Virus genome (UHGV): UHGV-1377030
Length of the DNA stretch: 23,643 nucleotides
From: a virus
Strand: one strand, 5' to 3'
Made by a program: the position numbers and the translations under genes. The notes below the pieces were generated by a model. The model was not told where the DNA came from. It worked only from the letters and a program-made list of their open reading frames with translations, and did not search any database. Positions 2,767 through 14,518 of the stretch are shown in pieces; within the stretch, counting starts at the first letter, position 1; every line of letters begins with the position of its first letter.

Positions 2767-3042
2767 ATGTCGATGTACACAACCGCCCAGCTGCTGGCGG
2801 CAAATGAGCAGAAATTTAAGTTTGATCCGCTGTTTCTGCGTCTCTTTTTCCGTGAGAGCTATCCCTTCACCACGGAGAAAGTCTATCTCTCACAAATTCC
2901 GGGACTGGTAAACATGGCGCTGTACGTTTCGCCGATTGTTTCCGGTGAGGTTATCCGTTCCCGTGGCGGATCCACCTCTGAATTTACGCCGGGATATGTC
3001 AAACCCAAGCACTTAGCATGGCTTTCTGAGGCTTTCGTGTAG
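2767..3042 (+). pseudogene. E: Major capsid protein E, 5' fragment truncated by the island insertion
   Basis: MSMYTTAQLLAANEQKFKFDPLFLRLFFRESYPFTTEKVYLSQ...TPGYVKPKH matches the lambda gpE N-terminus up to about nt 3012; the frame then reads 10 unrelated codons (LAWLSEAFV) and stops at 3042. The rest of E resumes at 13730. Confidence 0.85.
3002..3011. repeat. Left copy of 10-bp direct repeat (putative attL core)
   Basis: aacccaagca; identical copy at 13728..13737. Lambda-homologous E sequence ends here. Confidence 0.55.
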
Positions 3043-3139
3043 TTGCTGGTTTTTACACTTAATCTTTTGATAATAAAGAATAAATTTATCTGGCGCTTTC
3101 ACTGAATTTTCCTCGTTATCTGTGTGTTGCAATCATCTC

Positions 3140-3160
3140 TGTATTGCAGCTTGTATTGCT
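3140..3160. repeat. Tandem direct repeat tgtattgcagc / tgtattgct (putative integrase arm-type sites, left end)
   Basis: tgtattgcagc (3140..3150) and tgtattgct (3152..3160); a near-identical pair occurs at 13632..13652 in the same orientation. Confidence 0.45.
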
Positions 3161-3174
3161 TTTTGGGGCTAAAA

Positions 3175-4410
3175 ATGGCTGGCGAGAACAAACTGAGCGA
3201 CAAAGCGCTTAAAGGATATCTGGGGAAACCCAGAGAAAAGCAGATCACCATTGCTGATGGAAAGGGGCTTTCTATTCGTGTGAGTACTAAAGGGGCTGTG
3301 AGCTTTGTTTTCTTCTACAGGTTAGCAGGTGGCCGGGCTGCTCCGGTCTGGCTAACGTTGGGTAAATATCCTGATATGTCACTCAAACAGGCAAGGGAAA
3401 AGCGCGACGAGTGCCGTGGTTGGTTGGCTGACAAACGTGATCCGCGTATCCAGATTAAGATTCAGGCTGAAGAACGCTTAAAGCCGGTCACAGTGGAGGA
3501 TGCACTAAATTACTGGTATGAAAATTACTGTAAGGTGCGTCGTAAAACTCATGCTGTAACGCTTGGCAGATTTCGAAAGCATATCTTTCCCTATATCGGT
3601 CATTTGCCCGTAAATGACACTCACCTATATGAATGGCTGGACTGTTTTGACCGAATTAAACGTAATGCACCAGTTATGGCGGCGTATGTTTTTTCTGACA
3701 CTAAATTAGCTCTTCGTTTTTGTCGGGTACGCCAGTACGCGACGTGTGATGCTTTAAAGGATTTGCGCATGAGTGATGTGGGGCAGATTGCAGGTAAGCG
3801 GGATCGGGTTCTGGATGAAGCCGAACTCGGCCAGCTCTGGAAGGCAATTTTTGTCGAGCCTGATTTAAAACTAATGTCTGAATACACGCGAAAAATGTTT
3901 GTGCTTTGTACAGTATTTGGATGTCGAATGAGTGAAGCCCGATTATCAGAATGGAGCGAATGGGATCTCGAAAGTTGGGTTTGGACTGTACCAAAAGATC
4001 ACTCAAAAACTGGTGTTGAAATCGTCAGACCAGTACCTGAAATTCTACGACAGTGGGTAACGGATGTTCACGAAGAGACAAAACATACTGGTTATGTGCT
4101 GGGAAGTCTGCGAATTAGAGAAAGCGTAAGCAAGATTGGGGGGAAAATCGGTAAACGTTTGGGCCATGAAAAACAATGGTCACTACACGACCTTAGAAGA
4201 ACGCTATCTACTCATCTAAGTGATCTCGGTGTTGAATTTTATGTAGTAGAACAACTGTTAGGCCATGCGCTACCTGGCGTGGCAGGTGTTTACAACCGGA
4301 GTAAGTTTATGGCTAAAAAACTGGATGCTCTGGAACTCTGGACTACATATCTCAATAGCATCGCAGGTGCTGATTCAAAAGTGACGATCCTCAAACAAAA
4401 GGTTGGTTAA
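3175..4410 (+). CDS. int: Tyrosine recombinase / integrase, P4-type (N-terminal arm-binding domain plus catalytic domain)
   Basis: ATG at 3175 (MAGENKLSDKALKGYLG...) in the 3124..4410 ORF. N-terminus resembles the P4-like integrase arm-binding domain (DGKGLSIRVSTKGAVSFVFFYRLAG...LGKYPDMSLKQAREKRDE); the C-terminus carries HDLRRT, LLGHA and a VYNRS tyrosine region typical of tyrosine recombinases. Start at 3124 is an alternative. Confidence 0.85.
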   Translation: MAGENKLSDKALKGYLGKPREKQITIADGKGLSIRVSTKGAVSFVFFYRLAGGRAAPVWLTLGKYPDMSLKQAREKRDECRGWLADKRDPRIQIKIQAEERLKPVTVEDALNYWYENYCKVRRKTHAVTLGRFRKHIFPYIGHLPVNDTHLYEWLDCFDRIKRNAPVMAAYVFSDTKLALRFCRVRQYATCDALKDLRMSDVGQIAGKRDRVLDEAELGQLWKAIFVEPDLKLMSEYTRKMFVLCTVFGCRMSEARLSEWSEWDLESWVWTVPKDHSKTGVEIVRPVPEILRQWVTDVHEETKHTGYVLGSLRIRESVSKIGGKIGKRLGHEKQWSLHDLRRTLSTHLSDLGVEFYVVEQLLGHALPGVAGVYNRSKFMAKKLDALELWTTYLNSIAGADSKVTILKQKVG

Positions 4411-4411
4411 C

Positions 4412-4639
4412 ATGAAAAAAATGGCAATTGTTGATAAAAAGGGTCTGGAGTACATTCCTAACATTGACCGAATGATCCGTGAGAAAGAATGTCGGGAGCT
4501 AACCACTCTTGCGAACAGCACACGCTGGAAGCTGGAGAAGGAAGGAAAATTTCCTAAGCGGATCAAGATTGGTTCCACTGCTGTTGCATATCGTCTTTCA
4601 GAAGTGCAGGCATGGATTCGAGGTGAGTGGGTAGTTTAA
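4412..4639 (+). CDS. alpA: AlpA-like phage transcriptional regulator / excisionase-like HTH protein
   Basis: MKKMAIVDKKGLEYIPNIDRMIREKECRELTTLANSTRWKLEKEGKFPKRIKIGSTAVAYRLSEVQAWIRG; short MerR/AlpA-type HTH protein immediately after int with tight spacing (int stop 4408..4410, ATG 4412). Confidence 0.75.
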   Translation: MKKMAIVDKKGLEYIPNIDRMIREKECRELTTLANSTRWKLEKEGKFPKRIKIGSTAVAYRLSEVQAWIRGEWVV

Positions 4640-4664
4640 ATTATCTCAGAATAAAATATTATGA

Positions 4665-4700
4665 ATTACTGATTTGAGAATTTGTACTCAAATCAGTAAT
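4665..4700. terminator. Perfect 14-bp inverted repeat hairpin between convergent genes (bidirectional terminator candidate)
   Basis: attactgatttgag (4665..4678) and ctcaaatcagtaat (4687..4700) with an 8-nt loop, in AT-rich context between the alpA stop and the stop of the minus-strand membrane protein gene. Confidence 0.5.
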
Positions 4701-4708
4701 AACATTCT

Positions 4709-5245
4709 TTATAAGAGATTAAATCCAAATAAAGAGTAATCATATACCGGGGTGCATTGCATTCCACTGAATATGCTGATGTTTTTTTCTGTTTCTATCC
4801 TTTTTTCAATAAGTTGTTGTATATTTTTACAGTACAATTTGTGTGTGATGTTATTATCGTAAGCCTGATATAGCAACGTCAATGTTGACGCTAGGAAACA
4901 TACAGATAAAATTAAAATAATATATGCAGTTTTTTTATTTTTTGTCCATGATCTATTTGTTTGTGAAATATAAAGAATTCTGAGGTGGATAATGGTGAGA
5001 GACAATAGCAGGCCACTCAATAAAATAAGTATTGGGTTTGCGTATTTTATTAATGGTTGAGAGCAAAAAACTATTATAGCTCCTGTGACTGCGTATGAGA
5101 AAAAGGAGTAATTAAACTTCTTACTCCTTCTCTCAAGTATTTTAATTTCATCTTGTGTGGGGGTTTTAGATGCCTCTAATATAAGTTTATTGAATGTTTC
5201 TGTTATCTTGTTTTTTGTGTTTGTGGCTATTTTTTTTAGATTCAT
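4709..5245 (-). CDS. Hypothetical membrane protein (about 3 predicted TM helices), AT-rich cargo gene
   Basis: 178-aa ORF with hydrophobic stretches (FFSYAVTGAIIVFCSQPLI, ILILLSGLLLSLTIIHLRILYI, AYIILILSVCFLASTLTLLY), a GGGAG-like SD upstream, and strongly AT-rich codon usage unlike its neighbours. No family recognised. Confidence 0.5.
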   Translation of the reverse strand: MNLKKIATNTKNKITETFNKLILEASKTPTQDEIKILERRSKKFNYSFFSYAVTGAIIVFCSQPLIKYANPILILLSGLLLSLTIIHLRILYISQTNRSWTKNKKTAYIILILSVCFLASTLTLLYQAYDNNITHKLYCKNIQQLIEKRIETEKNISIFSGMQCTPVYDYSLFGFNLL

Positions 5246-5559
5246 AGCATTCTAACTCCCTTAACTTATTTATTACTTTCTCTTTATGATAAGAGAGGGG
5301 AATGACTTGGTAAAGTGATTTGTCATTAATAATGATAATCCTTGCGATAAATATTTCTGCAAGTTATTTATCTGTTTGTTGCTATCTTGTTAAGCGTTGG
5401 GTGTGGTTTATATTTGGAGCGACTTTATTTAATCGTGATTTTATGGATTTATATTTATATCCTGTAAGATAAGCGCATGTTAGTTTAGGAGTAGTGTCAG
5501 ATAAAATTATTCGGAGTAGAACTACCTTTTCTGTTTATTGCCAGTATTTACATAGCAAT

Positions 5560-5586
5560 GCGCCGTAGTTACTCACATCACGGCGC
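5560..5586. terminator. Stem-loop downstream of the minus-strand regulator gene
   Basis: gcgccgt (5560..5566) pairs with acggcgc (5580..5586); lies just 3' of the stop of the 5596..5898 gene on its strand. Confidence 0.3.
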
Positions 5587-5595
5587 TGATACTAA

Positions 5596-5898
5596 TTATT
5601 CAGATTCTTTGGCTTTACGCCGCTGGAGTTCTTCACGAGCGACGGCTACGAGTTGCCCGATTTCCTCCGCTGCCTTGATGCCGATTTGTTCGACCTTAGC
5701 TAAGGCATCCAGTGAAGACACGAGGGGATTTTCTCCGCTTCCTTCTGCCTGGCGGCGGGCGATCTCACCGCGCATGGCGGTTACTATGAATCCGGCGTTG
5801 CTTTCGCCGTCCAGTTTTACGGATTCCATGCCCTCCATAACATCGTGGGGAACCCTGATCGTTGTCATTTGCGATTTTGCATTTTTGTATACAGACAT
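5596..5898 (-). CDS. Putative small transcriptional regulator (repressor-like; possible ribbon-helix-helix N-terminus)
   Basis: 100-aa ORF divergent from the replication operon. N-terminal MTTIRVPHDVMEGMES resembles the beta-strand of RHH (Arc/CopG-like) DNA-binding proteins. The start could instead be the internal Met at 5868. Confidence 0.45.
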   Translation of the reverse strand: MSVYKNAKSQMTTIRVPHDVMEGMESVKLDGESNAGFIVTAMRGEIARRQAEGSGENPLVSSLDALAKVEQIGIKAAEEIGQLVAVAREELQRRKAKESE

Positions 5899-5914
5899 AG
5901 TTAATCACCAATTT

Positions 5915-6025
5915 GTTATGTGTATATCACTATACACAAAAGTGAGATATAAAAACACTTGCAATGTATATCACCACAATATAATGTATATCTCACATTA
6001 TGGTCGCTATGTATCTCACAATGAT
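5915..6025. promoter_or_regulatory. Divergent promoter/operator region with four direct copies of TGTATAT(C)TCAC-like motif plus an inverted copy
   Basis: tgtatatcac (5921..5930), tgtatatcacc (5965..5975), tgtatatctcac (5985..5996), tgtatctcaca (6009..6020) and inverted gtgagatat (5942..5950), all within the 208-bp gap between divergent genes. Confidence 0.5.
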
Positions 6026-6106
6026 CGATTCATAAAAACGACGAAACCCGGCAGTGCGCGAACACTAACCGGGCTTCTAACCAAACCGTTAAACGAGGTA
6101 ACTATT

Positions 6107-6472
6107 ATGGCTGGAACACAGCATACCCAAACTCACCCTAAATTTATATACATCTTTCTGGCGCTACATCGCGATCGCATAGCAGATGGAGCAACTACGG
6201 TACATGTAGCCGCTGACACGCTGGTTGATGCCCGCAAGATGGTTAAGGAGATGGGCTATACTGCGGCTTTCTGGAAAGGGCGGGAAGAAAACACGCTGTT
6301 TATTCAGAAATGTGAAAACAATTTCCTCTGGCGTTTTATCGCCCTGAGTACGACACAACCGCGCGTGATTACCATCGAGGCCACCAGCGAACAGGAAGCC
6401 CGCCAGCAATCCCCAACTGGCTGCGTGATGATATTCGCCGCCCGTATTCGTCAGGAGGTGTGCCATGAATGA
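6107..6472 (+). CDS. Hypothetical protein (first gene of island early/replication operon)
   Basis: ATG at 6107 preceded by a GAGGT SD; the longer 5558..6472 ORF would run antisense through the regulator gene, so it is trimmed. No family recognised. Confidence 0.5.
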   Translation: MAGTQHTQTHPKFIYIFLALHRDRIADGATTVHVAADTLVDARKMVKEMGYTAAFWKGREENTLFIQKCENNFLWRFIALSTTQPRVITIEATSEQEARQQSPTGCVMIFAARIRQEVCHE

Positions 6473-6689
6473 TCTTTATTTTAAAGTGCTGACACATGCT
6501 GAAAACGCGCTCGTTTGTGGCAAAAATATGCGAGAAATCTTATCAACCTGGCTTGATGGGACAACAAATGCGGAACACGATGAACGGGATGCTAATTTAG
6601 CTGGAGCGTTAATTACGTTACTTGATCCTGTCATCAAAGAGCTGGATGAAGCTATAAAAATACACGATCAGAGCTATACCGAAGAATAA
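6465..6689 (+). CDS. Hypothetical protein
   Basis: 74-aa ORF; its ATG overlaps the upstream stop (ATGA coupling) and is preceded by an AGGAGG SD. Confidence 0.5.
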   Translation: MNDLYFKVLTHAENALVCGKNMREILSTWLDGTTNAEHDERDANLAGALITLLDPVIKELDEAIKIHDQSYTEE

Positions 6690-6691
6690 AA

Positions 6692-6979
6692 ATGAAAAAT
6701 AAATTTTCTGGCTTTATTGCTAGCGGTCAAGCTCATTCAAAAATCAGCCTTGGGGATATTTTCAAAGATAGCTATGGCTATCGGGTAAAGATTATTTCGG
6801 TTGATGATCGCCGTGTCCCTTATTTGCGTGATGGTTATGATTTTGAATGTGTTATGCCGCGTCAGCAGTTCGAAAGAGATTTCATTCTGGTAAAAAATTG
6901 CAAGACAGATAATCAGAGGCGTGCCGCAGGCTATATCCGCAAAATTCGGGCAATGTTAGTTGCCGGAGGTAATAAATGA
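6692..6979 (+). CDS. Hypothetical protein
   Basis: 95-aa ORF starting 3 nt after the previous stop; operon context. Confidence 0.45.
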   Translation: MKNKFSGFIASGQAHSKISLGDIFKDSYGYRVKIISVDDRRVPYLRDGYDFECVMPRQQFERDFILVKNCKTDNQRRAAGYIRKIRAMLVAGGNK

Positions 6980-7158
6980 AACGTGCTCCGAACTTAAAAT
7001 ACCAACCGCGCGACAAAATGACAGAAGTCATCATTTTTGCTGGCAGTGATGCCTAGAGCCATGCAAAAGAATGGAATGAATGGGCGGGTAAGCATATTGC
7101 AGCAGATGATACACCACCAGTAATTCTGGGTACGGAACAACTGGAAAACCTGGATGAT

Positions 7159-8796
7159 ATGCAAATTATCGATGAAGGCCGTCATTATGTGCGTGTTTAT
7201 CGTGCCGGAAAGATTGCAGAGAAAAATCTGACGAAGGTTGCGACATTACTTGCTATTGCAGGCGTAAAGGAAGCACGTTGTTACCGTAGCTTTGTTGATC
7301 GAGAGCCTGAAGACTGGACTCCGCGCCTTGTCGGCCTAAAAGCTGAAGCGGAGCATGGGGAAAGTCTGGTGATTGAACTGCCAGTGAAGAAGGCTGAGCG
7401 CAAAAATGACGAGCGTGCTTCATCTTTGGCGTTGAATCAGATGGGGGCCAGCCAGCGCGGTGAAGTTCTCCTTGCACATTACGGCGGCGAACTGGCAATC
7501 AATGCCGACTCTGACACCGTTCATCATTACAACGGCGTTGTATGGGAGCCGGTTCAGGATAAAGAGTTACAGCGTGCTATGGCGCAGATTTTCATTGATG
7601 CGGAGATCAGCTATTCGCAGAACGCTATTAAATCGGCGGTAGATACCATGAAGTTAAGTTTGCCTGTAATGGGGAATACAGCCCGTAACCTGATTGGATT
7701 CAGTAACGGGGTATTTGATACCAGAACTGGTAATTTTCGGGAGCATAACAAAAACGACTGGTTGTTAATTGCCAGTGAATTACCTTTCAGCCCACCAGCA
7801 GAGGGGGAAACGCTGGCAACACATGCGCCGAATTTCTGGAAGTGGTTGCGCCGTTCGGTGGCTGAGAATGACCGCAAGGCAGATCGCGTACTGGCGGCAT
7901 TATTCATGGTGCTGGCGAACCGGTACGACTGGCAGTTATTCATTGAGGTAACAGGGCCGGGGGGAAGTGGTAAAAGTGTGATGGCGGAGATTTGCACCAT
8001 GCTGGCGGGTAAGGCTAATACAGTATCAGCAAGCATGAAGGCGCTGGAAGATGCAAGGGAACGTGCGTTAGTGGTTGGCTTTTCGCTGATTATCATGCCG
8101 GATATGACCCGCTACGCTGGTGATGGGGCAGGGATTAAGGCCATTACAGGCGGTGACAAGGTGGCAATTGACCCGAAACACAAAGCCCCCTATTCAACGC
8201 GTATTCCGGCAGTAGTGCTGGCGGTTAACAATAACGCCATGTCATTCAGTGACCGCAGCGGGGGGATCTCACGTCGTCGGGTGATATTCAATTTTTCGGA
8301 AGTTGTACCGGAGAACGAACGCGATTCGATGCTGGCGGAAAAAATAGAAGGTGAGCTGGCGGTAGTGATTCGTCATCTGCTTACAAGGTTTGCTGATCAG
8401 GACGAAGCCAGACGCCTGTTATATGAGCAGCAGAAATCTGAAGAAGCACTGGCGATAAAGCGAGAGGGGGATTCGCTGGTGGACTTCTGCGGTTATCTCA
8501 TGGCATCGGTAATGTGTGATGGCCTGTTAGTGGGTAATGCTGAAATTGTGCCATTCAGCCCACGCAGGTATCTCTATCATGCCTATCTGGCTTATATGAG
8601 GGCACATGGGTTTGGTAAACCTGTAACACTGACGCGCTTCGGTAAAGATATGCCGGGGGCAATGGCGGAATATGGCAGGGAGTATATGAAACGGAAAACG
8701 AAGCACGGTTTGCGTTCAAACGTGACCCTGACGGAGGAATCAGAAGACTGGATGCCATCATGTGTATCGGTCACTAATGACGATAGCAAAAATTAA
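7159..8796 (+). CDS. Phage/plasmid primase-helicase, P4 alpha-like (D5 N-terminal-like region plus SF3 P-loop NTPase)
   Basis: Walker A GPGGSGKS in TGPGGSGKSVMAEICTMLAG, a downstream hydrophobic-acidic Walker B-like stretch (LVVGFSLIIMPDM), and overall resemblance to satellite/PICI primase-replicase proteins. Gene is followed directly by an iteron array. Confidence 0.8.
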   Translation: MQIIDEGRHYVRVYRAGKIAEKNLTKVATLLAIAGVKEARCYRSFVDREPEDWTPRLVGLKAEAEHGESLVIELPVKKAERKNDERASSLALNQMGASQRGEVLLAHYGGELAINADSDTVHHYNGVVWEPVQDKELQRAMAQIFIDAEISYSQNAIKSAVDTMKLSLPVMGNTARNLIGFSNGVFDTRTGNFREHNKNDWLLIASELPFSPPAEGETLATHAPNFWKWLRRSVAENDRKADRVLAALFMVLANRYDWQLFIEVTGPGGSGKSVMAEICTMLAGKANTVSASMKALEDARERALVVGFSLIIMPDMTRYAGDGAGIKAITGGDKVAIDPKHKAPYSTRIPAVVLAVNNNAMSFSDRSGGISRRRVIFNFSEVVPENERDSMLAEKIEGELAVVIRHLLTRFADQDEARRLLYEQQKSEEALAIKREGDSLVDFCGYLMASVMCDGLLVGNAEIVPFSPRRYLYHAYLAYMRAHGFGKPVTLTRFGKDMPGAMAEYGREYMKRKTKHGLRSNVTLTEESEDWMPSCVSVTNDDSKN

Positions 8797-8804
8797 ACTT
8801 ATGG

Positions 8805-9040
8805 AATAACTGTTCACCACTGTTCACCCTGTCATAAATATCTTTTATATCAGTATATTATAGGGTGAACAGTTATTTATGAACTGTTCACCAAACTATT
8901 CACTGTTCACCTTTTTGATTGTTTATTGAGCTTCAAGGGTGAACAGTGGTGAACAGTTGGTGAATAGTTTTTGTGAAACTGTTCACCCATTAACATTATG
9001 AATTAAAAGAGAAAATATCAAAAGGTGAACAGGTGAAGGG
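8805..9040. repeat. Iteron array, putative island replication origin
   Basis: About 10 copies of CTGTTCACC or its complement GGTGAACAG in both orientations: 8810..8818, 8820..8828, 8864..8872, 8884..8892, 8903..8911, 8938..8946, 8948..8956, 8959..8967 (degenerate), 8979..8987, 9024..9032, in AT-rich non-coding DNA just 3' of the helicase gene. Confidence 0.65.
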
Positions 9041-9083
9041 TTAAAACGCAAAAATTTTAATTTACTGCTGTGAGATAAAGCCT

Positions 9084-9329
9084 ATGACAGCGAAGCACAC
9101 AAAAAAATCACAATCGCACGCCCTTGATTTGACGGAACACTGGTTAAGGGTGTCGATAAAAATCATCGACCGCAACGCCGGGGAAGGATACGCGAAAGCA
9201 CATCCCGAACTGATTAGCGCATTCATGACAACGGCGGCTGCAAACTTTGCCACTCTGACCGAACGGGAGATTGCTGAAGCGGAGGAAGTGACAACAATCA
9301 ATATTAAGTCCGGAGAGCAGGCAGCATGA
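9084..9329 (+). CDS. Hypothetical protein
   Basis: 81-aa ORF; its stop overlaps the start of the next gene (ATGA). Weak SD. Confidence 0.4.
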   Translation: MTAKHTKKSQSHALDLTEHWLRVSIKIIDRNAGEGYAKAHPELISAFMTTAAANFATLTEREIAEAEEVTTINIKSGEQAA

Positions 9330-9775
9330 CGGCGCAAATATCAGTTTACGGGCGGTTGGTGGACGACCCGCAGACAAAACAGACCAGCAAGGGCACCCCC
9401 ATGACGCTGGCGCGTATGGCGGTATCACTGCCCTGCAGTCAGTCGGATGACGGTCAGGCGACGATGTGGTTATCTGTCCTGGCGTTTGGCAGACAAGCCG
9501 ACGCGCTGGCAAAGCATCACAAAGGCGAACTCCTGAGCGTGGCGGGTAATATGCAGGTGAGCCAGTGGACTGGACAGAACGGTGAAACGCGGCAGGGCTG
9601 GCAGGTTATCGCAGACAGCGTAATCAGTGCGCGAACGGTGCGACCGGGCGGCAAAAAAGGTCAACAGGGTCAGGCTACTGACGCACTGAACAGAGCAAAA
9701 CAACAGGCAGATCAGCAAGGAAGCCATCCACCAGTGGGAGATAATGAGCAATGGGGAGATGATATTCCGTTTTAA
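9326..9775 (+). CDS. Single-stranded DNA-binding protein-like (divergent SSB with acidic C-terminal tail)
   Basis: 149 aa ending in ...EQWGDDIPF, the characteristic SSB C-terminal tail (DDDIPF); a Gly/Gln-rich linker precedes it. Confidence 0.6.
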   Translation: MTAQISVYGRLVDDPQTKQTSKGTPMTLARMAVSLPCSQSDDGQATMWLSVLAFGRQADALAKHHKGELLSVAGNMQVSQWTGQNGETRQGWQVIADSVISARTVRPGGKKGQQGQATDALNRAKQQADQQGSHPPVGDNEQWGDDIPF

Positions 9776-9783
9776 ATATTGCC

Positions 9784-9808
9784 AATAAAAAAGGCCGGAA
9801 AAAAATAA
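9784..9808. other. Palindromic hairpin after the SSB-like gene
   Basis: gccggaaaa-aaataaa-ttttccggc perfect palindrome; terminator or operator, function unclear. Confidence 0.3.
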
Positions 9809-9992
9809 ATTTTCCGGCATGCTACATAAATCCCGACCAAAGGGAGTGAAGATATTAACACTAATTATCCGCGCTGGAGTTGTTATCCCAAAACTTTATA
9901 CAACATTGCACTCGGTTGCATGTATTCGCATGACAAATATCGGTGATAGCATATATCCACAATTATTTTTAATGAATGCAAAGAGGATGCGT

Positions 9993-11033
9993 ATGGTTGA
10001 TTTATATTCGCCTACCCAGCTTGTACAGGTGGTTAATGCTGTAGATGTACAAAAACAACTAAATGCGTTGTTTACCAGTTTGTTTTTTACTCGCTCGGTA
10101 ATGTTTGAATCGCGCGATATTATTCTTGATACAATCGACGATCCAAATATCCCAATTGCAGCGTTTTGTTCTCCTATGGTAGGTAGTAAAGTTTCACGTG
10201 ACGAAGGGTACGAATCAAAAACAATTCGTCCAGGCTATATGAAGCCGAAAAGCAGCATTGATCCAAATAAGTTAGCTGTGCGCCCTGCTGGTGTATCACC
10301 TGAGCAATACAATGCTTTTGGAGCGCGTAATATTAAAGTTAAACAGGCGATTGTAAATCAGGCTAAAGCTATTCGTGCACGTATTGAATGGTTTGCCGTT
10401 CAGGCAATCACAACGGGGAAAAATATCATTGAGGGCGATGGTATTGAACGTTATGAGCTGGACTGGAATATAAAACCACAAAATATCATCACTCAGTCTG
10501 GCGGTACTGAGTGGTCAGGTAAGGATAAAGAAACTTTTGATCCAAATGATGATATTGAGAGCTACGCAGAATTTAGTGAGGGCGTCACTAATATCATCAT
10601 TATGGGCGGTAATGTATGGAAGAAATACCGTTCATTCAGAGCGATAAAAGAGGCTCTGGATACCCGTCGTGGTTCTAATTCCGAACTGGAAACGGCCCTT
10701 AAAGACCTTGGTGATTCGGTGAGTTTTAAAGGGTATATGGGCGATGTTGCGATTGTTGTATACAGCGGGCGTTATACCGACGAGGACGGAACTGAAAAAC
10801 ATTTCCTTGATCCTGATTTGATGGTGCTTGGCAATACGGCTCTTCAGGGGATTGTCGCCTATGGCGGTATTCAGGATCCGGAGCTAATCCGAATGGGGCT
10901 GACTAAAGCCGAACTTGCACCGAAAAACTATATTGTGCCTGGTGATCCGGCTATTGAATATGTGCAGACACATTCAGCACCACAGCCAATACCGGCCCGC
11001 ATCAATCGTTTTGTTACCGTTCGCATTGGCTAA
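9993..11033 (+). CDS. Island-encoded major capsid protein homologue (lambda gpE-like, full length)
   Basis: ATG at 9993 with an AGAGGA SD 5 nt upstream. MVDLYSPTQLVQ... aligns with the gpE N-terminus, and the C-terminal half is clearly homologous (ITQSGGTEWS, LDTRRGSNSELETA, GDVAIVVYSG, MVLGNT, GDPA), visible even at nucleotide level. Confidence 0.85.
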   Translation: MVDLYSPTQLVQVVNAVDVQKQLNALFTSLFFTRSVMFESRDIILDTIDDPNIPIAAFCSPMVGSKVSRDEGYESKTIRPGYMKPKSSIDPNKLAVRPAGVSPEQYNAFGARNIKVKQAIVNQAKAIRARIEWFAVQAITTGKNIIEGDGIERYELDWNIKPQNIITQSGGTEWSGKDKETFDPNDDIESYAEFSEGVTNIIIMGGNVWKKYRSFRAIKEALDTRRGSNSELETALKDLGDSVSFKGYMGDVAIVVYSGRYTDEDGTEKHFLDPDLMVLGNTALQGIVAYGGIQDPELIRMGLTKAELAPKNYIVPGDPAIEYVQTHSAPQPIPARINRFVTVRIG

Positions 11034-11042
11034 GGGGGAGCA

Positions 11043-11384
11043 ATGGCTACTCATTACACTGAACTCATGGCTGGCACTGAAGCACTGGTGACTACGCTGG
11101 GGATATTTTCAGCTAATAAAGGGGTAATTCCTGCATTTACGCCACTGATGCAGGAAGATGCAACAGGTGCACTGGTGGTATGGGATGGTTCGAGCGTAGG
11201 TAAAGCGGTTTATGTTTCCGCTGTACAAATCGACACCGCGAAAAAAACACAGGCTCAGGTCTATAAGACAGGTGTCTTAAATGTTGATGCTCTGAACTGG
11301 CCTGAGTCTGTAAAAGAACTGTCAGTAAAGATTGCAGCGTTTGTTGGCTCAGGTATTTCTGTTCAGCCGCTGGCTCGTGTGTAA
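11043..11384 (+). CDS. Island-encoded head decoration protein homologue (lambda gpD-like)
   Basis: 113 aa with strong SD (AAGGGGGAG). TPLMQEDATGALVVWDGSSVGKAVYVSAVQ...FVGSGISV parallels gp[30 protein letters not shown]...FAGTAISIV; similar length. Confidence 0.7.
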   Translation: MATHYTELMAGTEALVTTLGIFSANKGVIPAFTPLMQEDATGALVVWDGSSVGKAVYVSAVQIDTAKKTQAQVYKTGVLNVDALNWPESVKELSVKIAAFVGSGISVQPLARV

Positions 11385-11395
11385 AGGGGGATACA

Positions 11396-11779
11396 ATGCA
11401 GAATGATTACAATGACCTTAAGCCACTTGCCGAAATGATGTACCCGAATCCAGCTGTAGAGGAATTAAAAGCTATCGCTGACAAAATGTGTTTAAGCGAG
11501 CGCCTTGTTGATATGAATCAGGTGATGGAAATTACAACCCTGAGTCGGCGTACACTGCTAAACCTTGAGGCTAGTGGAGAGTTCCCGGAGCGTGTGCAGG
11601 TTACGGAAGGGCGTAAGGCCTGGTATTTAAGTGAAGTGATCGACTGGATAAATAATATTCCTCGCGCTTCTGAATATTGCCGCGTACCTGTCCCAAAAAA
11701 GCCAGATGCGGCGCTATGCCTCAAGATTGAGCGTGTACGCCGCAATGCACGGGATGGTCGCTATAAGCTGATTGGTTGA
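11396..11779 (+). CDS. Small HTH DNA-binding protein (AlpA/MerR-like winged helix), candidate cos-binding or packaging-redirecting protein
   Basis: 127 aa with strong SD. Central segment MEITTLSRRTLLNLEASGEFPERVQVTEGRKAWYLSEVIDWINN has AlpA-like HTH architecture; gene sits directly upstream of the island cos site. Confidence 0.55.
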   Translation: MQNDYNDLKPLAEMMYPNPAVEELKAIADKMCLSERLVDMNQVMEITTLSRRTLLNLEASGEFPERVQVTEGRKAWYLSEVIDWINNIPRASEYCRVPVPKKPDAALCLKIERVRRNARDGRYKLIG

Positions 11780-11832
11780 TGAAATTAGGGCCCGCTCTGG
11801 CTGGCGGGTCCTTTCCGGCGATCTGACAGGCT

Positions 11833-12000
11833 ACGGGGCGTCAGGCGCGCAGTTTTTTGCTATTTGTGAAAATTTTCCTGTTTAAGGCGTTTCCGTTCTT
11901 CTTCGCCGTAACTTAATGTTTTTATTAAAAACACCCCCTAAAAAGAAAGGAAACGACAGGTGCTAAAAACAGGCTTTTTGGCCTCTGTCGTTTCCTTTCT
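11833..12000 (+). other. Lambda-type cos site carried by the island (cosN-like plus cosB R3, I1 region, R2, R1)
   Basis: Sequence from ctacggggcg... through gcgtttccgttcttcttcg (R3-like, 11888..11905), agaaaggaaacgacag (R2-like, 11944..11959) and ctgtcgtttcctttct (R1-like, 11985..12000) closely parallels the left end of lambda DNA as I recall it. The R-site region is near-identical; the cosN segment differs at several positions. Confidence 0.75.
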
Positions 12001-12345
12001 CTGGTTTTGTTGCCATCCGTCGCGGTCTATCACCAGAAAAAATCTTATCCCTGAGTTGAATCAGGCCCTATTCAGAAGCGGCCAATAACGCGCCGCTAGC
12101 TTCACTTCATAGTTATGGCCTACTTCTGCGCCATTGCAATTGCTTTATGCGCCTTGATGGTGGAATATAGAGCAAGCAGTTTGCGAATAACAAAGTTTCA
12201 TATGTTTTTTGCTGTGTGGCTAGACAACTTTACAGCAGAGTTTTGTGTCAGTTCTTTATGTGTGCAAGCAAGCTTGAGGGGGAATTACTTCTGGCTGCAT
12301 CTTTGCTTAAGAACAGCAATAATTTAATCATAAGGAAATGTATAT

Positions 12346-12368
12346 AAGCCTGATTAAATTTCAGGCTT
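12346..12368 (-). terminator. Hairpin immediately 3' of the TIR-domain gene
   Basis: aagcctga (12346..12353) pairs with tcaggctt (12361..12368) around a 7-nt loop, 10 nt beyond the gene stop, in AT-rich context. Confidence 0.4.
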
Positions 12369-12377
12369 ATTGAAATG

Positions 12378-13520
12378 TTAACTCCTTATTAGAGAGTAAA
12401 TTCCATCCTCTTTAAGGAAGTCTATTACTTCAAAGAATGAGATAAAGAATTCCCAAGAACCAAAAGCATATGCATGAATTTCGTAAGGTGCAAAATGGAA
12501 TCTAAATCCATCACTATTTATTGTGAACGAGTCTAAGTTACTATCCATGATACCCGTTGCAAACGTACTAATGTCGTCCTCACTTGGTTTTTCACCAGTT
12601 TTCTCCCAAAATTCACGAGCTGATTCAGAGATTATTTTTTGTTTTATCTTATTAATCGCTTCTTGCTCTTTCCCTTCGGTAAATACATCCCATAAACTAA
12701 ATTTGTATGCGTAGTCATCCTTGGTTATTACGAAATTACTAGTTTCAAAATGACTGTTAGGGTGTGCTGCTCCCGCACCATACCAATGTACGGAATGAAG
12801 GATGCTCATAACATTTTCGTTACAGTATGAGATGTTATAACTTTCATTATAGGAACTAGTGTAAGTGTGTTTATATTCTTCATCCCAATATGGTGTTCCT
12901 GGCCATAGTGATGTGCGTTCAGAAAAAATATGTAAAGCCGCTTTTCCTGAAAAGTAATCACTAATGAGTTTTGCTGATTTCGGTAATGTATGGCTTTCAA
13001 TTCTTGGATATGCTATTTCAATTTCATGCCCTGGGATCTTGTTATATTCTTCCTTGAAAACCTCGCTGCTAAAGTTAAATGGCCCATAAGTGATACCTTG
13101 AGATATTTCAAGTTTTTGTTGCGATGCTGCTAATCTTAAAGATCTAGATAAAATGTCCCAACCATCATTTCTCTTAAAATCAATGAATTGGAGCTTGCTT
13201 GATATGTAGGCGGGTACTTCGCAATCATCAATAAGTAATGGTATCACGAACACATCATCTGGTTTGTAATACTTTAGTTTATCAATGGCGTCATTTATTT
13301 CGCGGCGAATATAACCATTTTTCTGAGTGCTCACTTTGCTAAGGATAAGGATTATCAAGTTTGAATTAGCGAAGTTTTTTTGGATTTCATAATCCCAGTT
13401 TACGCCAGCGGGTATATCTTTTACATCCATCCAAGGGGAATATCCTCCACTTTTTAGCCTTTCATAGATTTCTTCAGTTATCGTTTCATCTTCTTTTGCA
13501 TGAGCAAGAAAAATTTTCAT
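12378..13520 (-). CDS. TIR-domain protein with uncharacterised ~240-aa C-terminal domain (candidate anti-phage defence cargo)
   Basis: 380-aa ORF with an AAGGAA SD 6 nt upstream. N-terminus MKIFLAHAKEDETITEEIYERLKSGGYSPWMDVKDIPAGVNW...LIILILSKVSTQKNGYIRREINDAI fits the bacterial TIR pattern (K-I/V-F-L/I-S/A-H/Y start, W at box 2, S-x-x-S...E catalytic-type segment). Strongly AT-rich relative to island and phage genes. Confidence 0.75.
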   Translation of the reverse strand: MKIFLAHAKEDETITEEIYERLKSGGYSPWMDVKDIPAGVNWDYEIQKNFANSNLIILILSKVSTQKNGYIRREINDAIDKLKYYKPDDVFVIPLLIDDCEVPAYISSKLQFIDFKRNDGWDILSRSLRLAASQQKLEISQGITYGPFNFSSEVFKEEYNKIPGHEIEIAYPRIESHTLPKSAKLISDYFSGKAALHIFSERTSLWPGTPYWDEEYKHTYTSSYNESYNISYCNENVMSILHSVHWYGAGAAHPNSHFETSNFVITKDDYAYKFSLWDVFTEGKEQEAINKIKQKIISESAREFWEKTGEKPSEDDISTFATGIMDSNLDSFTINSDGFRFHFAPYEIHAYAFGSWEFFISFFEVIDFLKEDGIYSLIRS

Positions 13521-13631
13521 TGAATATTCCTTTATAATTTAACTAATTAAGTGAAGGAGGCTTTACTTGGCTGTGTTAGAAAAAATTCGGTTTGTTTTTT
13601 GTACGATGCCAAGAAGGCTTTTCCCTAACCA

Positions 13632-13652
13632 TGTATTGCAGCATGTATTGCT
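13632..13652. repeat. Tandem direct repeat tgtattgcagc / tgtattgct (putative integrase arm-type sites, right end)
   Basis: tgtattgcagc (13632..13642) and tgtattgct (13644..13652), matching the pair at 3140..3160. Confidence 0.45.
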
Positions 13653-13727
13653 ACGTAATTCTGCACCCTCTCATTTATAAAATAAATCTCTGTTAAATCA
13701 AGTATCTTTTTTCTATTTGACTCATGT

Positions 13728-13737
13728 AACCCAAGCA
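13728..13737. repeat. Right copy of 10-bp direct repeat (putative attR core)
   Basis: aacccaagca; lambda E-homologous sequence resumes exactly here. Confidence 0.55.
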
Positions 13738-14518
13738 TGAGGTGAATCCGCAGATGACCCTGCGTCGCCTGCCGGATGAAGATCCGCAGAATCTGGCGGA
13801 CCCGGCTTACCGCCGCCGTCGCATCATCATGCAGAACATGCGTGACGAAGAGCTGGCCATTGCTCAGGTCGAAGAGATGCAGGCCGTTTCTGCCGTGCTT
13901 AAGGGCAAATACACCATGACCGGTGAAGCCTTCGATCCGGTTGAGGTGGATATGGGCCGCAGTGCGGCGAATAACATCACGCAGTCCGGCGGCACGGAGT
14001 GGAGCAAGCGTGACAAGTCCACGTATGACCCGACCGACGATATCGAAGCCTACGCGCTGAACGCCAGCGGTGTGGTGAATATCATCGTGTTTGATCCGAA
14101 AGGCTGGGCGCTGTTCCGTTCCTTCAAAGCCGTCAAGGAGAAGCTGGATACCCGTCGTGGCTCTAATTCCGAGCTGGAGACAGCGGTGAAAGACCTGGGT
14201 AAAGCGGTGTCCTATAAGGGGATGTATGGCGATGTTGCCATCGTCGTGTATTCCGGACAGTACGTGGAAAACGGCGTCAAAAAGAACTTCCTGCCGGACA
14301 ACACGATGGTGCTGGGGAACACTCAGGCACGCGGTCTGCGTACCTATGGCTGTATTCAGGATGCGGACGCACAGCGCGAAGGCATTAACGCCTCTGCCCG
14401 TTACCCGAAAAACTGGGTGACCACCGGCGATCCGGCGCGTGAGTTCACCATGATTCAGTCAGCACCGCTGATGCTGCTGGCTGACCCTGATGAGTTCGTG
14501 TCCGTACAACTGGCGTAA
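13730..14518 (+). pseudogene. E: Major capsid protein E, 3' fragment (continuation of the gene interrupted at about 3012)
   Basis: PKHEVNPQMTLRRLPDEDPQNLADPAYRRRR...DEFVSVQLA matches lambda gpE from about residue 80 to the C-terminus. An in-frame TAA at 13727..13729 precedes it, so the fragment lacks its N-terminal part. Confidence 0.85.

Follow-up and report, generated by a model that had tools for sequence, protein, structure and literature searches.

Here we describe two adjacent minus-strand genes at positions 4,709–5,898 of the UHGV virus genome UHGV-1377030, a stretch of 23,643 nucleotides that we refer to throughout as the window. The genes lie in a helper-embedded phage-inducible chromosomal island (PICI) that spans positions ~3002–13737 and sits within the major-capsid gene of a lambdoid prophage, a published configuration (PMC10111431). 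One of them, orf178, is a new, uncharacterised membrane-protein family in a known kind of slot. The other encodes a small protein of the YlcI/YnfO family, a candidate island repressor, and adjoins a cluster of operator-like repeats whose sequence covaries with the predicted DNA-reading strand of the regulator. The account that best explains both genes jointly is that an exclusion cargo gene and a YlcI/YnfO repressor module stand side by side as two independent things; we would rate this joint account a little below an even chance. Its parts differ in strength: the regulator probably represses the rightward operon, we lean slightly towards orf178 being anti-phage cargo, and we are doubtful that it acts specifically by entry exclusion.

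A sequence-only reading of the window had placed a 178-aa and a 100-aa open reading frame (ORF) on the minus strand between alpA and the replication operon. Their exact coordinates were confirmed, and RefSeq annotates both in identical copies.

The orf178 family and its cargo slot

The slot and its present occupant comprise the following features.

4403–4639, plus strand: alpA, encoding an AlpA-family regulator/excisionase (Pfam Phage_AlpA, E 3.1e-15; RefSeq coding sequence 4412–4639), the left border of the cargo slot
4665–4700, unstranded: perfect 14-bp inverted repeat (terminator scan, 100% complementary), a probable bidirectional terminator between the convergent alpA and orf178 genes
4709–5245, minus strand: orf178, 178 aa with an ATG start (ORF listing, RefSeq coding sequence), a stand-alone cargo gene for a predicted three-pass inner-membrane protein
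within 5246–5314, minus strand: ribosome-binding site of orf178, AAGGGAG, ~10 nt upstream of the ATG (read from the sequence)
5314 to 5286, minus strand: candidate sigma-70 promoter of orf178, TTTACC-17-TATCAT (scan, 9/12 matches; consensus-level)
5560–5586, minus strand: GC-rich hairpin GCGCCG...CGGCGC directly past the regulator stop codon (read from the sequence)

Sister islands inserted in the same capE gene retain alpA and diverge directly downstream of it, so that at least seven different cargoes are found between the conserved alpA and a small divergent regulator gene. The cargo is a DUF2971 protein in L002 and L021, a TIR protein assigned to the PADLOC candidate system PDC-S35 in L004 (E 7e-67), PD-T7-1, a validated defence gene that is here divided between two ORFs, in L022 (E 1e-114), and a protein of no named family in L003 (305 aa), L023 (273 aa) and L024 (467 aa). 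Because the same position after alpA holds PD-T7-1, TIR, DUF2971 or unassigned genes from one island to the next, we consider it a hotspot for defence-type cargo, which bears out the accessory slot proposed by the sequence-only reading. As an unannotated family whose slot is elsewhere occupied by validated defence genes, orf178 is therefore a cheap and well-defined candidate for a single-gene anti-phage or exclusion factor. No new kind of element is involved, because helper-embedded PICIs and satellite defence cargo are already known.

The AT-rich cargo cassette extends over ~4640–5557, and its right border, the GC-rich hairpin at 5560–5586, coincides with the boundary between conserved backbone and variable cargo. 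A similar GC-rich hairpin occupies the same place in L003 (~6300–6330), and the element may serve as a terminator or as a landmark for recombination. The membrane-protein gene had been singled out as unusually AT-rich, and its GC content is indeed 30%; no part of the window is more AT-rich than the interval 4601–5200 (GC 0.30, against ~0.55–0.60 in the prophage flanks). Of 5,426 complete E. coli genomes, 68 (~1.3%) carry the cassette, in each case on the chromosome. In one further observation, an IS5 insertion sequence interrupts the cassette in a single genome, that of strain 1218KP (NZ_CM173878.1; hits H28 and H125), so loss of orf178 is tolerated.

Hydropathy analysis gives three hydrophobic segments in orf178 (residues ~45–65, 71–93 and 106–128), in agreement with the three or so transmembrane (TM) segments anticipated by the sequence-only reading. 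There are eleven lysine and arginine residues in the N-terminal 44 residues, four in the loop at 94–105 and one in the turn at 66–70, and application of the positive-inside rule to this distribution predicts an N-in, C-out topology. The C-terminal tail (~129–165) is accordingly predicted to be periplasmic and contains the invariant residues C139 and C164, which, we infer, fit a disulfide in that compartment. The AlphaFold2 model is all-helical, with a mean pLDDT of 84. The gene appears to be transcribed from its own promoter, judging from the candidate sigma-70 sequence listed above.

An exhaustive HMMER search of 1.84 billion proteins returned eight representatives of the family, mostly 165–178 aa long with two shorter (113 and 148 aa), of which the non-E. 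coli members are 30–37% identical to the query. A word-indexed search of 5.8 billion proteins matched E. coli variants only, at 83% identity or more, and a profile search with the family collected 15 proteins. The family is conserved at 24–37% identity across several gammaproteobacterial genera, with P71, G78, C139, Q143, E153, F159 and C164 invariant in the alignment and two recognisable motifs, QPLxKYANP at the TM1–TM2 turn and HDxYC...EKNSxIFNNMQCR in the C-terminal tail. Conservation is concentrated on the predicted periplasmic side (0.66 in the turn and 0.62 in the tail, residues 129–165), compared with lower values on the cytoplasmic side (N-terminus 0.36, loop 0.42) and in TM3 (0.34).

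The sequence-only reading had supposed that a membrane protein in this position might be a superinfection-exclusion or abortive-infection factor, and homology searches for such relatives matched orf178 to no known exclusion, abortive-infection or defence family. Comparison with Pfam, NCBIfam, PADLOC and PHROGs gave sub-threshold, composition-type matches only (best PHROGs E 0.023). In PADLOC-DB 2.0 neither orf178 nor the regulator matched any family at E<=0.1, the homologue P0015 likewise matched none, and orf178 has no detectable sequence or fold homology to known superinfection-exclusion proteins such as SieA, gp15, Imm, Sp, SieB and Cor.

The genomic settings of the homologues are variable. 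A distant homologue occupies the same slot of a Kosakonia island that is likewise embedded in a prophage capsid gene, that is, of a helper-embedded PICI. In Pseudomonas mandelii (L013 5303–7447) a type XI retron gene encoding a reverse transcriptase (RT)-protease (PADLOC E 1e-174) is followed 49 bp downstream, on the same strand, by a homologue, and Fic and DUF4238 genes flank the locus. Another homologue is found a short way downstream of a Hachiman-like HamB helicase gene, from which a single unannotated gene separates it. A conserved partner gene was sought in the homologue neighbourhoods and no shared neighbour was found, which argues that orf178 works on its own or together with partners from the host or a phage. 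The link to retrons rests on a single locus, since the RT-protease neighbour is not shared by the other homologues; the 242-aa neighbour of a homologue in a Pseudomonas sp., for example, is unrelated to it.

Within E. coli there are two main orf178 alleles, and nearly all differences between them fall in codons 78–120, a stretch that runs from the last part of TM2 through the loop into the first part of TM3 (window ~4886–5014). A 124-nt segment here is ~32% divergent at the nucleotide level and the alleles are near-identical elsewhere, with three synonymous and no non-synonymous differences outside these codons and three differences in the 350-bp spacer upstream of the gene. Within codons 78–120 the synonymous divergence (dS) is 0.48 and the non-synonymous divergence (dN) 0.38, a ratio of ~0.8; the whole-gene dN/dS of ~0.5 is driven by this one mosaic segment and is not a clean test of selection. 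The pattern indicates a recombination mosaic in an otherwise intact gene, centred on what is predicted to be the cytoplasmic TM2–TM3 loop.

The YlcI/YnfO-family regulator and its operators

The second gene and the control elements to its right are listed below.

5596–5898, minus strand: gene for a 100-aa YlcI/YnfO-family small DNA-binding protein with an ATG start (ORF listing, RefSeq coding sequence), the candidate island repressor
5922–5931 (plus), 5943–5952 (minus), 5966–5975 (plus), 5986–5995 (plus) and 6011–6020 (plus), within 5919–6020: five operator-like repeats of TGTATATC(A/T)CAC type (pattern search)
5959–5987, plus strand: candidate rightward promoter of the icd-like/replication operon, with -35 TTGCAA at 5959–5964, a 17-nt spacer and -10 TAATGT at 5982–5987
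6040–6125, minus strand: SymR-like cis-antisense RNA (Rfam), with its -10 at 6125–6120, start at ~6112–6113 and terminator hairpin at 6047–6073, followed by a U-rich tail
6107–6472, plus strand: icd-like (P4 Kil/Eta-type) gene, the first of the rightward operon (NCBIfam phage_ICD_like, E 6.6e-23; RefSeq)

The regulator scores 70.5 bits (E 8.5e-20) with the NCBIfam model YlcI_YnfO_N (NF041551), whose cut-off is 30; residues 8–49 cover the whole profile (1–42 of 42). It also matches phrog_6522 with an E of 1.7e-61. Homologues of ~100 aa are widespread in Enterobacterales (n=249), and UniRef labels two of them 'Arc-like DNA binding domain'. We know of no function for the members of the family in E. 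coli K-12. In the alignment an invariant frame, K8-S9-Q10...R15-x-P17-H18, surrounds a variable tetrad at residues 11–14, and variable residues within a fixed frame are what is expected of the DNA-reading strand of ribbon-helix-helix (RHH) proteins such as Arc and Mnt. The AlphaFold2 model (mean pLDDT 79) has an extended segment at 12–17, helices at 18–27 and 34–52 and a long helix at 58–99, and it is likely that the N-terminal domain (~8–52) is an RHH fold that, together with the long C-terminal helix, gives a Mnt-like layout. The protein had been called RHH-like from its sequence; that assignment has gained a named family and a strand-helix-helix model, without statistical significance for the fold. 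A helix-hairpin-helix-like match of the C-terminal half (to Hef) was weak (E 0.025) and is not relied on.

A small divergent gene is found at the regulator position in all sister islands, encoding a long or short YlcI-type protein, a HicB-family protein (in L022 and L023) or a 59-aa unassigned protein. In the window the 208-bp intergenic region between the regulator and the icd-like gene contains five copies of a GTATATC(A/T)CA-type repeat, spaced 20–25 bp or about two helical turns apart. This cluster accounts for five of the seven matches to the repeat pattern in the window, where 1.9 would be expected, and none of 100 shuffles reached seven. One copy lies in the spacer of the candidate rightward promoter and another directly after its -10, and in all sister islands a TTGACA-like hexamer is found at the same position, with an operator copy in the spacer.

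The sequence of the repeat tracks the regulator allele and not the type of the downstream leader hairpin. Our comparison covered seven YlcI-family loci with five variants of the strand and four distinct types of repeat. The regulator strand QMTTIR of the window and the strand QMTTLR of L017, an island with a different integrase and site, are both paired with the repeat TGTATATCWCAC; QLTTVR in L005 is paired with GTGTGTTTCA; QSLTAR in L018 and L019 with TGTAAG(A/C)C; and QTVAAR, in the 59-aa short form of L003, with GGTGTTCAACACC. At the locus L004, where the regulator position holds an unrelated 59-aa protein with no Pfam family, the repeat is ATGTAATGTGT. A repressor-operator specificity module is supported by the clustering of the repeats, by their overlap with the candidate promoter and by their covariation with the predicted DNA-reading strand.

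According to the model we propose, the Mnt-like RHH regulator would bind the five repeats at 5919–6020 cooperatively. The repeats would overlap both the candidate rightward promoter and the regulator's own leftward promoter, and the bound protein would hold the early operon of the satellite off until AlpA and the helper override it. Whether a global repressor exists in Gram-negative PICIs has been called 'unclear' (PMC6092414), and we did not find the idea of a YlcI/YnfO repressor for these elements in the literature searched. The covariation of operator and regulator nominates the family for this role, with precise sites. The sequence-only suggestion that the regulator may be the island repressor is in this respect strengthened, in silico, by the five clustered repeats over a candidate promoter and their covariation, but the protein is not the sole layer of control, which also includes AlpA and an antisense RNA.

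This RNA matches the Rfam model SymR (RF01809) at 6040–6112 on the minus strand over the full length of the model, with 35.3 bits and an E of 1.9e-4, below the gathering score of 61; the corresponding element of L018 scores 33.6 bits. It overlaps both the start codon (ATG, 6107) and the Shine-Dalgarno sequence of the icd-like gene, and that gene corresponds to P4 Kil (PMC10111431). Across nine loci two hairpins are formed with 24 predicted pairs, seven of them with compensatory changes. Some pairs are G-U on the minus strand only, and the U-rich tail after the second hairpin is likewise confined to that strand. An extended -10, TGnTATRMT, is conserved in most of the nine loci inside codons 3–7 of otherwise divergent icd-like genes; in the window and in L004 its TG lies one base further upstream. 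The antisense RNA would additionally block translation of the Kil-type gene as a second layer of control, and we did not find such an RNA described for PICIs in the literature searched. For the P4-type immunity RNAs C4 and isrK, Rfam gave no match in the window at gathering thresholds, nor did one appear when the limit was relaxed to E<=5. The sister PICI L018, on the other hand, carries isrK and C4 (P4 CI-type) RNAs at 3153–3338 (75 and 62 bits), between the leader hairpin and the icd-like gene. Since these occur there besides a YlcI-type regulator and a SymR-like element, the control layers appear to be modular and stackable.

Weighing the alternatives

We favour an anti-phage role for orf178 because it is a stand-alone gene, because the neighbourhoods of its family are variable and rich in defence genes and because its conserved surface is predicted to be periplasmic. 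The protein would be exchangeable cargo downstream of alpA, a single-gene factor that protects the lysogen from other phages, and would block entry of the phage genome at the inner membrane by means of its periplasm-facing turn and tail. More broadly, a role in superinfection exclusion or abortive infection, as originally suggested, is plausible from the genomic context and the conservation on the predicted periplasmic face.

A number of observations weigh against these proposals. The role of orf178 is assigned by guilt by association and predicted topology, with every biochemical activity and phenotype inferred, because the protein has no detectable relative among known exclusion, abortive-infection or defence proteins. 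A tblastn search of 50,697 phage genomes gave no match at E<=1, and Foldseek searches with the predicted fold gave none in BFVD (best E 0.83) or the PDB. The differences between the two alleles lie in the cytoplasm-side TM2–loop–TM3 region and could point to a cytoplasmic interaction. Furthermore, not all homologue settings look defensive: a Pantoea homologue directly follows tssF, tssG and tssJ of a type VI secretion system (T6SS) cluster and precedes an HNH protein, and a homologue in another Pseudomonas lies a few kb from an S-type pyocin. As to the regulator, the rightward promoter is weak by consensus and falls below the scan threshold, and AlpA, not a repressor, is the experimentally established activator and master regulator of Gram-negative PICIs (PMC6092414, PMC11773190). 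The RHH assignment is affected as well: Foldseek against the PDB returned only two matches, both of them RHH proteins (NikR and the pCXC100 ParB), at non-significant E of 3.6 and 4.8, hhalign comparisons were non-significant (Arc, E 0.007 with a probability of 5.5%; Mnt, E 0.13), and a profile search of solved PDB structures retrieved no RHH protein.

It is conceivable, if rather improbable, that orf178 is an abortive-infection effector that forms a pore or depolarises the membrane, killing or arresting the infected cell instead of blocking entry, in the manner of RexB, the two-TM effector of retron Ec48 or the SLATT/CBASS two-TM effectors. The position of one homologue just behind the P. mandelii retron gene and the cytoplasmic location of the allelic mosaic would suit such an effector, as would weak Pfam matches to DUF4231 and Saf_2TM (E 0.02–0.04). 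However, these matches are far below their cut-offs (15.6 bits against 24.7 and 14.1 against 29.5, respectively) and are each made by one of nine family members, and we rejected a SLATT/SAVED-fused two-TM effector as a candidate. Moreover, no sensor partner is conserved beside the homologues, type XI retrons are described as single-gene systems without a membrane partner (PMC7736814), and the conservation of the family is on the predicted periplasmic face. Another reading makes orf178 an orphan immunity protein against a toxin acting on the membrane or in the periplasm, such as a pore-forming bacteriocin or a T6SS effector. The immunity proteins of pore-forming colicins resemble orf178 in layout, with three TM segments in 178 aa, their own promoter and an orientation opposite to that of their neighbours, and the Pantoea and pyocin-linked homologues would be in keeping with such a function. 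Nevertheless, orf178 matches no Pfam colicin-immunity or other immunity family, no toxin gene is adjacent in the island or at most homologue loci and the other occupants of the slot are phage-defence genes, so we hold this reading to be improbable, slightly more so than an abortive-infection effector.

The two genes might instead form a single module, an RHH antitoxin or dedicated regulator with a membrane toxin, in which case the regulator would not be an island repressor. They are adjacent and co-oriented, with no strong terminator between them, and toxin-antitoxin loci commonly place an RHH protein ahead of a toxin. We hold such a module, a type II toxin-antitoxin pair included, to be very unlikely. 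The genes are 350 bp apart, and orf178 has a ribosome-binding site and a candidate promoter of its own; 517 genomes match an alpA–regulator query, mostly via the regulator gene, compared with 68 that have orf178; the regulator gene in E. coli genomes is usually found beside icd-like genes, and orf178 homologues elsewhere occur without it; the operator repeats are on the icd-like side, with none near orf178; and a recombination breakpoint divides the cassette from the N-terminus of the regulator and the operators. Least credible of all is that one or both ORFs are not genes, with orf178 a chance AT-rich ORF and the 100-aa ORF the shadow of a plus-strand Eta-like ORF at 5558–6472. On the plus strand the frame stays open over 304 codons, 69 of them intergenic, running antisense to the regulator, through the intergenic operator region and into the icd-like gene; a 470-aa plus-strand coding sequence is annotated over the same region in ETEC-2264, and P4 has its Eta ORF at the equivalent place (PMC10111431). 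Against this, orf178 belongs to a conserved family with invariant positions and is modelled with confidence, each of the other two same-strand frames of the gene contains 14–15 stops, and the regulator matches a curated family that is also found as stand-alone genes. The translation of the plus-strand frame, by contrast, is of low complexity and shares its third codon positions with the regulator; it has no RefSeq annotation here, and in several sister islands it is annotated as broken, with fragments marked as pseudogenes. We therefore rejected the 304-aa ORF as an equivalent of P4 Eta and judge it to be probably an antisense shadow or remnant, of which only the last 121 codons (6107–6472, Icd-like) are treated as a gene. 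In ETEC-2264 (L020 1839–3251), where the 470-aa frame is annotated as an 'Icd-like' coding sequence, the minus-strand gene is also intact, and the N-terminus of the longer product looks, by eye, like the Bro-N type, which recalls P4 Eta.

Returning to orf178 as anti-phage cargo beside a YlcI/YnfO repressor, a more far-reaching generalisation can be formulated. YlcI/YnfO RHH proteins would be the missing repressors or immunity determinants of Gram-negative PICIs, with allele-specific operators over the early promoter and a SymR-like RNA that silences the Kil/Icd gene, and orf178 would be the first of a new family of exclusion proteins, each encoded by a single gene, facing the periplasm and borne by satellites as exchangeable cargo. 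Taken as a whole we regard this as unlikely.

The island and known systems

The window is Escherichia coli DNA: two complete genomes match the segment 2700–13800 with 100% identity, and 27 genomes cover 80% or more of its length. The prophage major-capsid gene is split into 2767–3012 and ~13730–14518 (RefSeq, junction analysis), and a 10-bp direct repeat, AACCCAAGCA, the core of the attachment (att) site, is present at both junctions (3002–3011 and 13728–13737). The satellite is co-oriented with the surrounding capsid gene and encodes integrase and AlpA domains (Pfam). In an identical copy annotated by RefSeq, the lambdoid head genes for portal, S49 peptidase and head decoration protein are followed by the N-terminal fragment of the major capsid protein, integrase, the AlpA-type regulator, a hypothetical protein (minus strand), the YlcI/YnfO-family protein (minus strand) and Icd-like; then come two small genes, a primase (pseudogene), SSB, a second major capsid protein, head decoration and a helix-turn-helix protein; and at the right end a TIR protein (minus strand), the C-terminal fragment of the prophage capsid protein and the tail genes.

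Two other parts of the island deserve mention. The primase/helicase gene (6976–8796) has a premature stop at codon 27 (~7054) and is a pseudogene in RefSeq, with a 545-aa ORF restarting at 7159; the satellite may be replication-defective, or the primase may be translated from an internal start. The right end is a second AT-rich cargo slot, holding a 380-aa TIR-domain protein (12378–13520, minus strand) with PADLOC matches to the TIR of prokaryotic Argonaute (pAgo)-associated and Thoeris-type proteins (best E 1.6e-17) and no complete known system, and sister islands carry DUF262/HEPN or other genes within the island, apparently at the same slot.

The element is of the same type, and at the same site inside a prophage major-capsid gene, as the E:Phage_cap_E group of helper-embedded PICIs (Tommasini, Mageeney and Williams 2023, PMC10111431), whose four-zone order of integration, dynamic, replication and late functions it shares; strain NRG857c, used in that study, has the orf178 cassette at 99.3% identity. 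In the terms of PMC10111431, orf178 and the regulator are located in the 'dynamic (Bro) zone' between the integration and replication zones. This zone has been described with Bro-network proteins and C4/isrK immunity RNAs (PMC10111431), and the island differs from that description in having no C4/isrK match. The main text of the same paper names neither a membrane protein of the orf178 type nor a YlcI/YnfO regulator with operators.

P22 SieA, HK97 gp15 and T4 Imm are small helical inner-membrane proteins that act at the membrane on incoming phage, and are AT-rich, independently expressed cargo of the 'moron' type. The predicted product of orf178 resembles them as a small helical inner-membrane protein encoded by AT-rich, independent cargo of a temperate element, and differs from them in having neither sequence similarity in the 50,697 phage genomes nor a fold match in BFVD or the PDB. 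The concept of superinfection exclusion is treated in PMC11364771.

The regulator, as modelled, is likened to the P22 repressors Mnt and Arc of the immI region by its small size, by a predicted N-terminal DNA-reading strand that is followed by two helices, by an R-x-P-x-(D/E)-V motif after the strand and by repeated operator-like sites overlapping a candidate promoter, and to Mnt in particular by a further helix at the C-terminus through which higher-order assembly could take place. Unlike Mnt and Arc, with which it has no significant sequence or profile similarity, it is associated with five repeats and not with a single palindromic operator. Its position is that of the master repressors Stl and Rpr in Gram-positive PICIs (Staphylococcus aureus pathogenicity islands, SaPIs), divergent from the replication/early operon and between the integrase and replication sides (PMC6092414), but its fold and size differ, and the switch of Gram-negative PICIs is the helper-induced activator AlpA. 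Finally, although the putative antisense RNA scores 35 bits, below the SymR gathering threshold of 61, and its target is an icd-like gene of P4 Kil type and not SymE, it corresponds to the SymR/SymE type I toxin-antitoxin arrangement in being a minus-strand RNA of ~75 nt that starts inside the coding region of its target, spans the target's AUG and Shine-Dalgarno sequence and is closed by a terminator hairpin.

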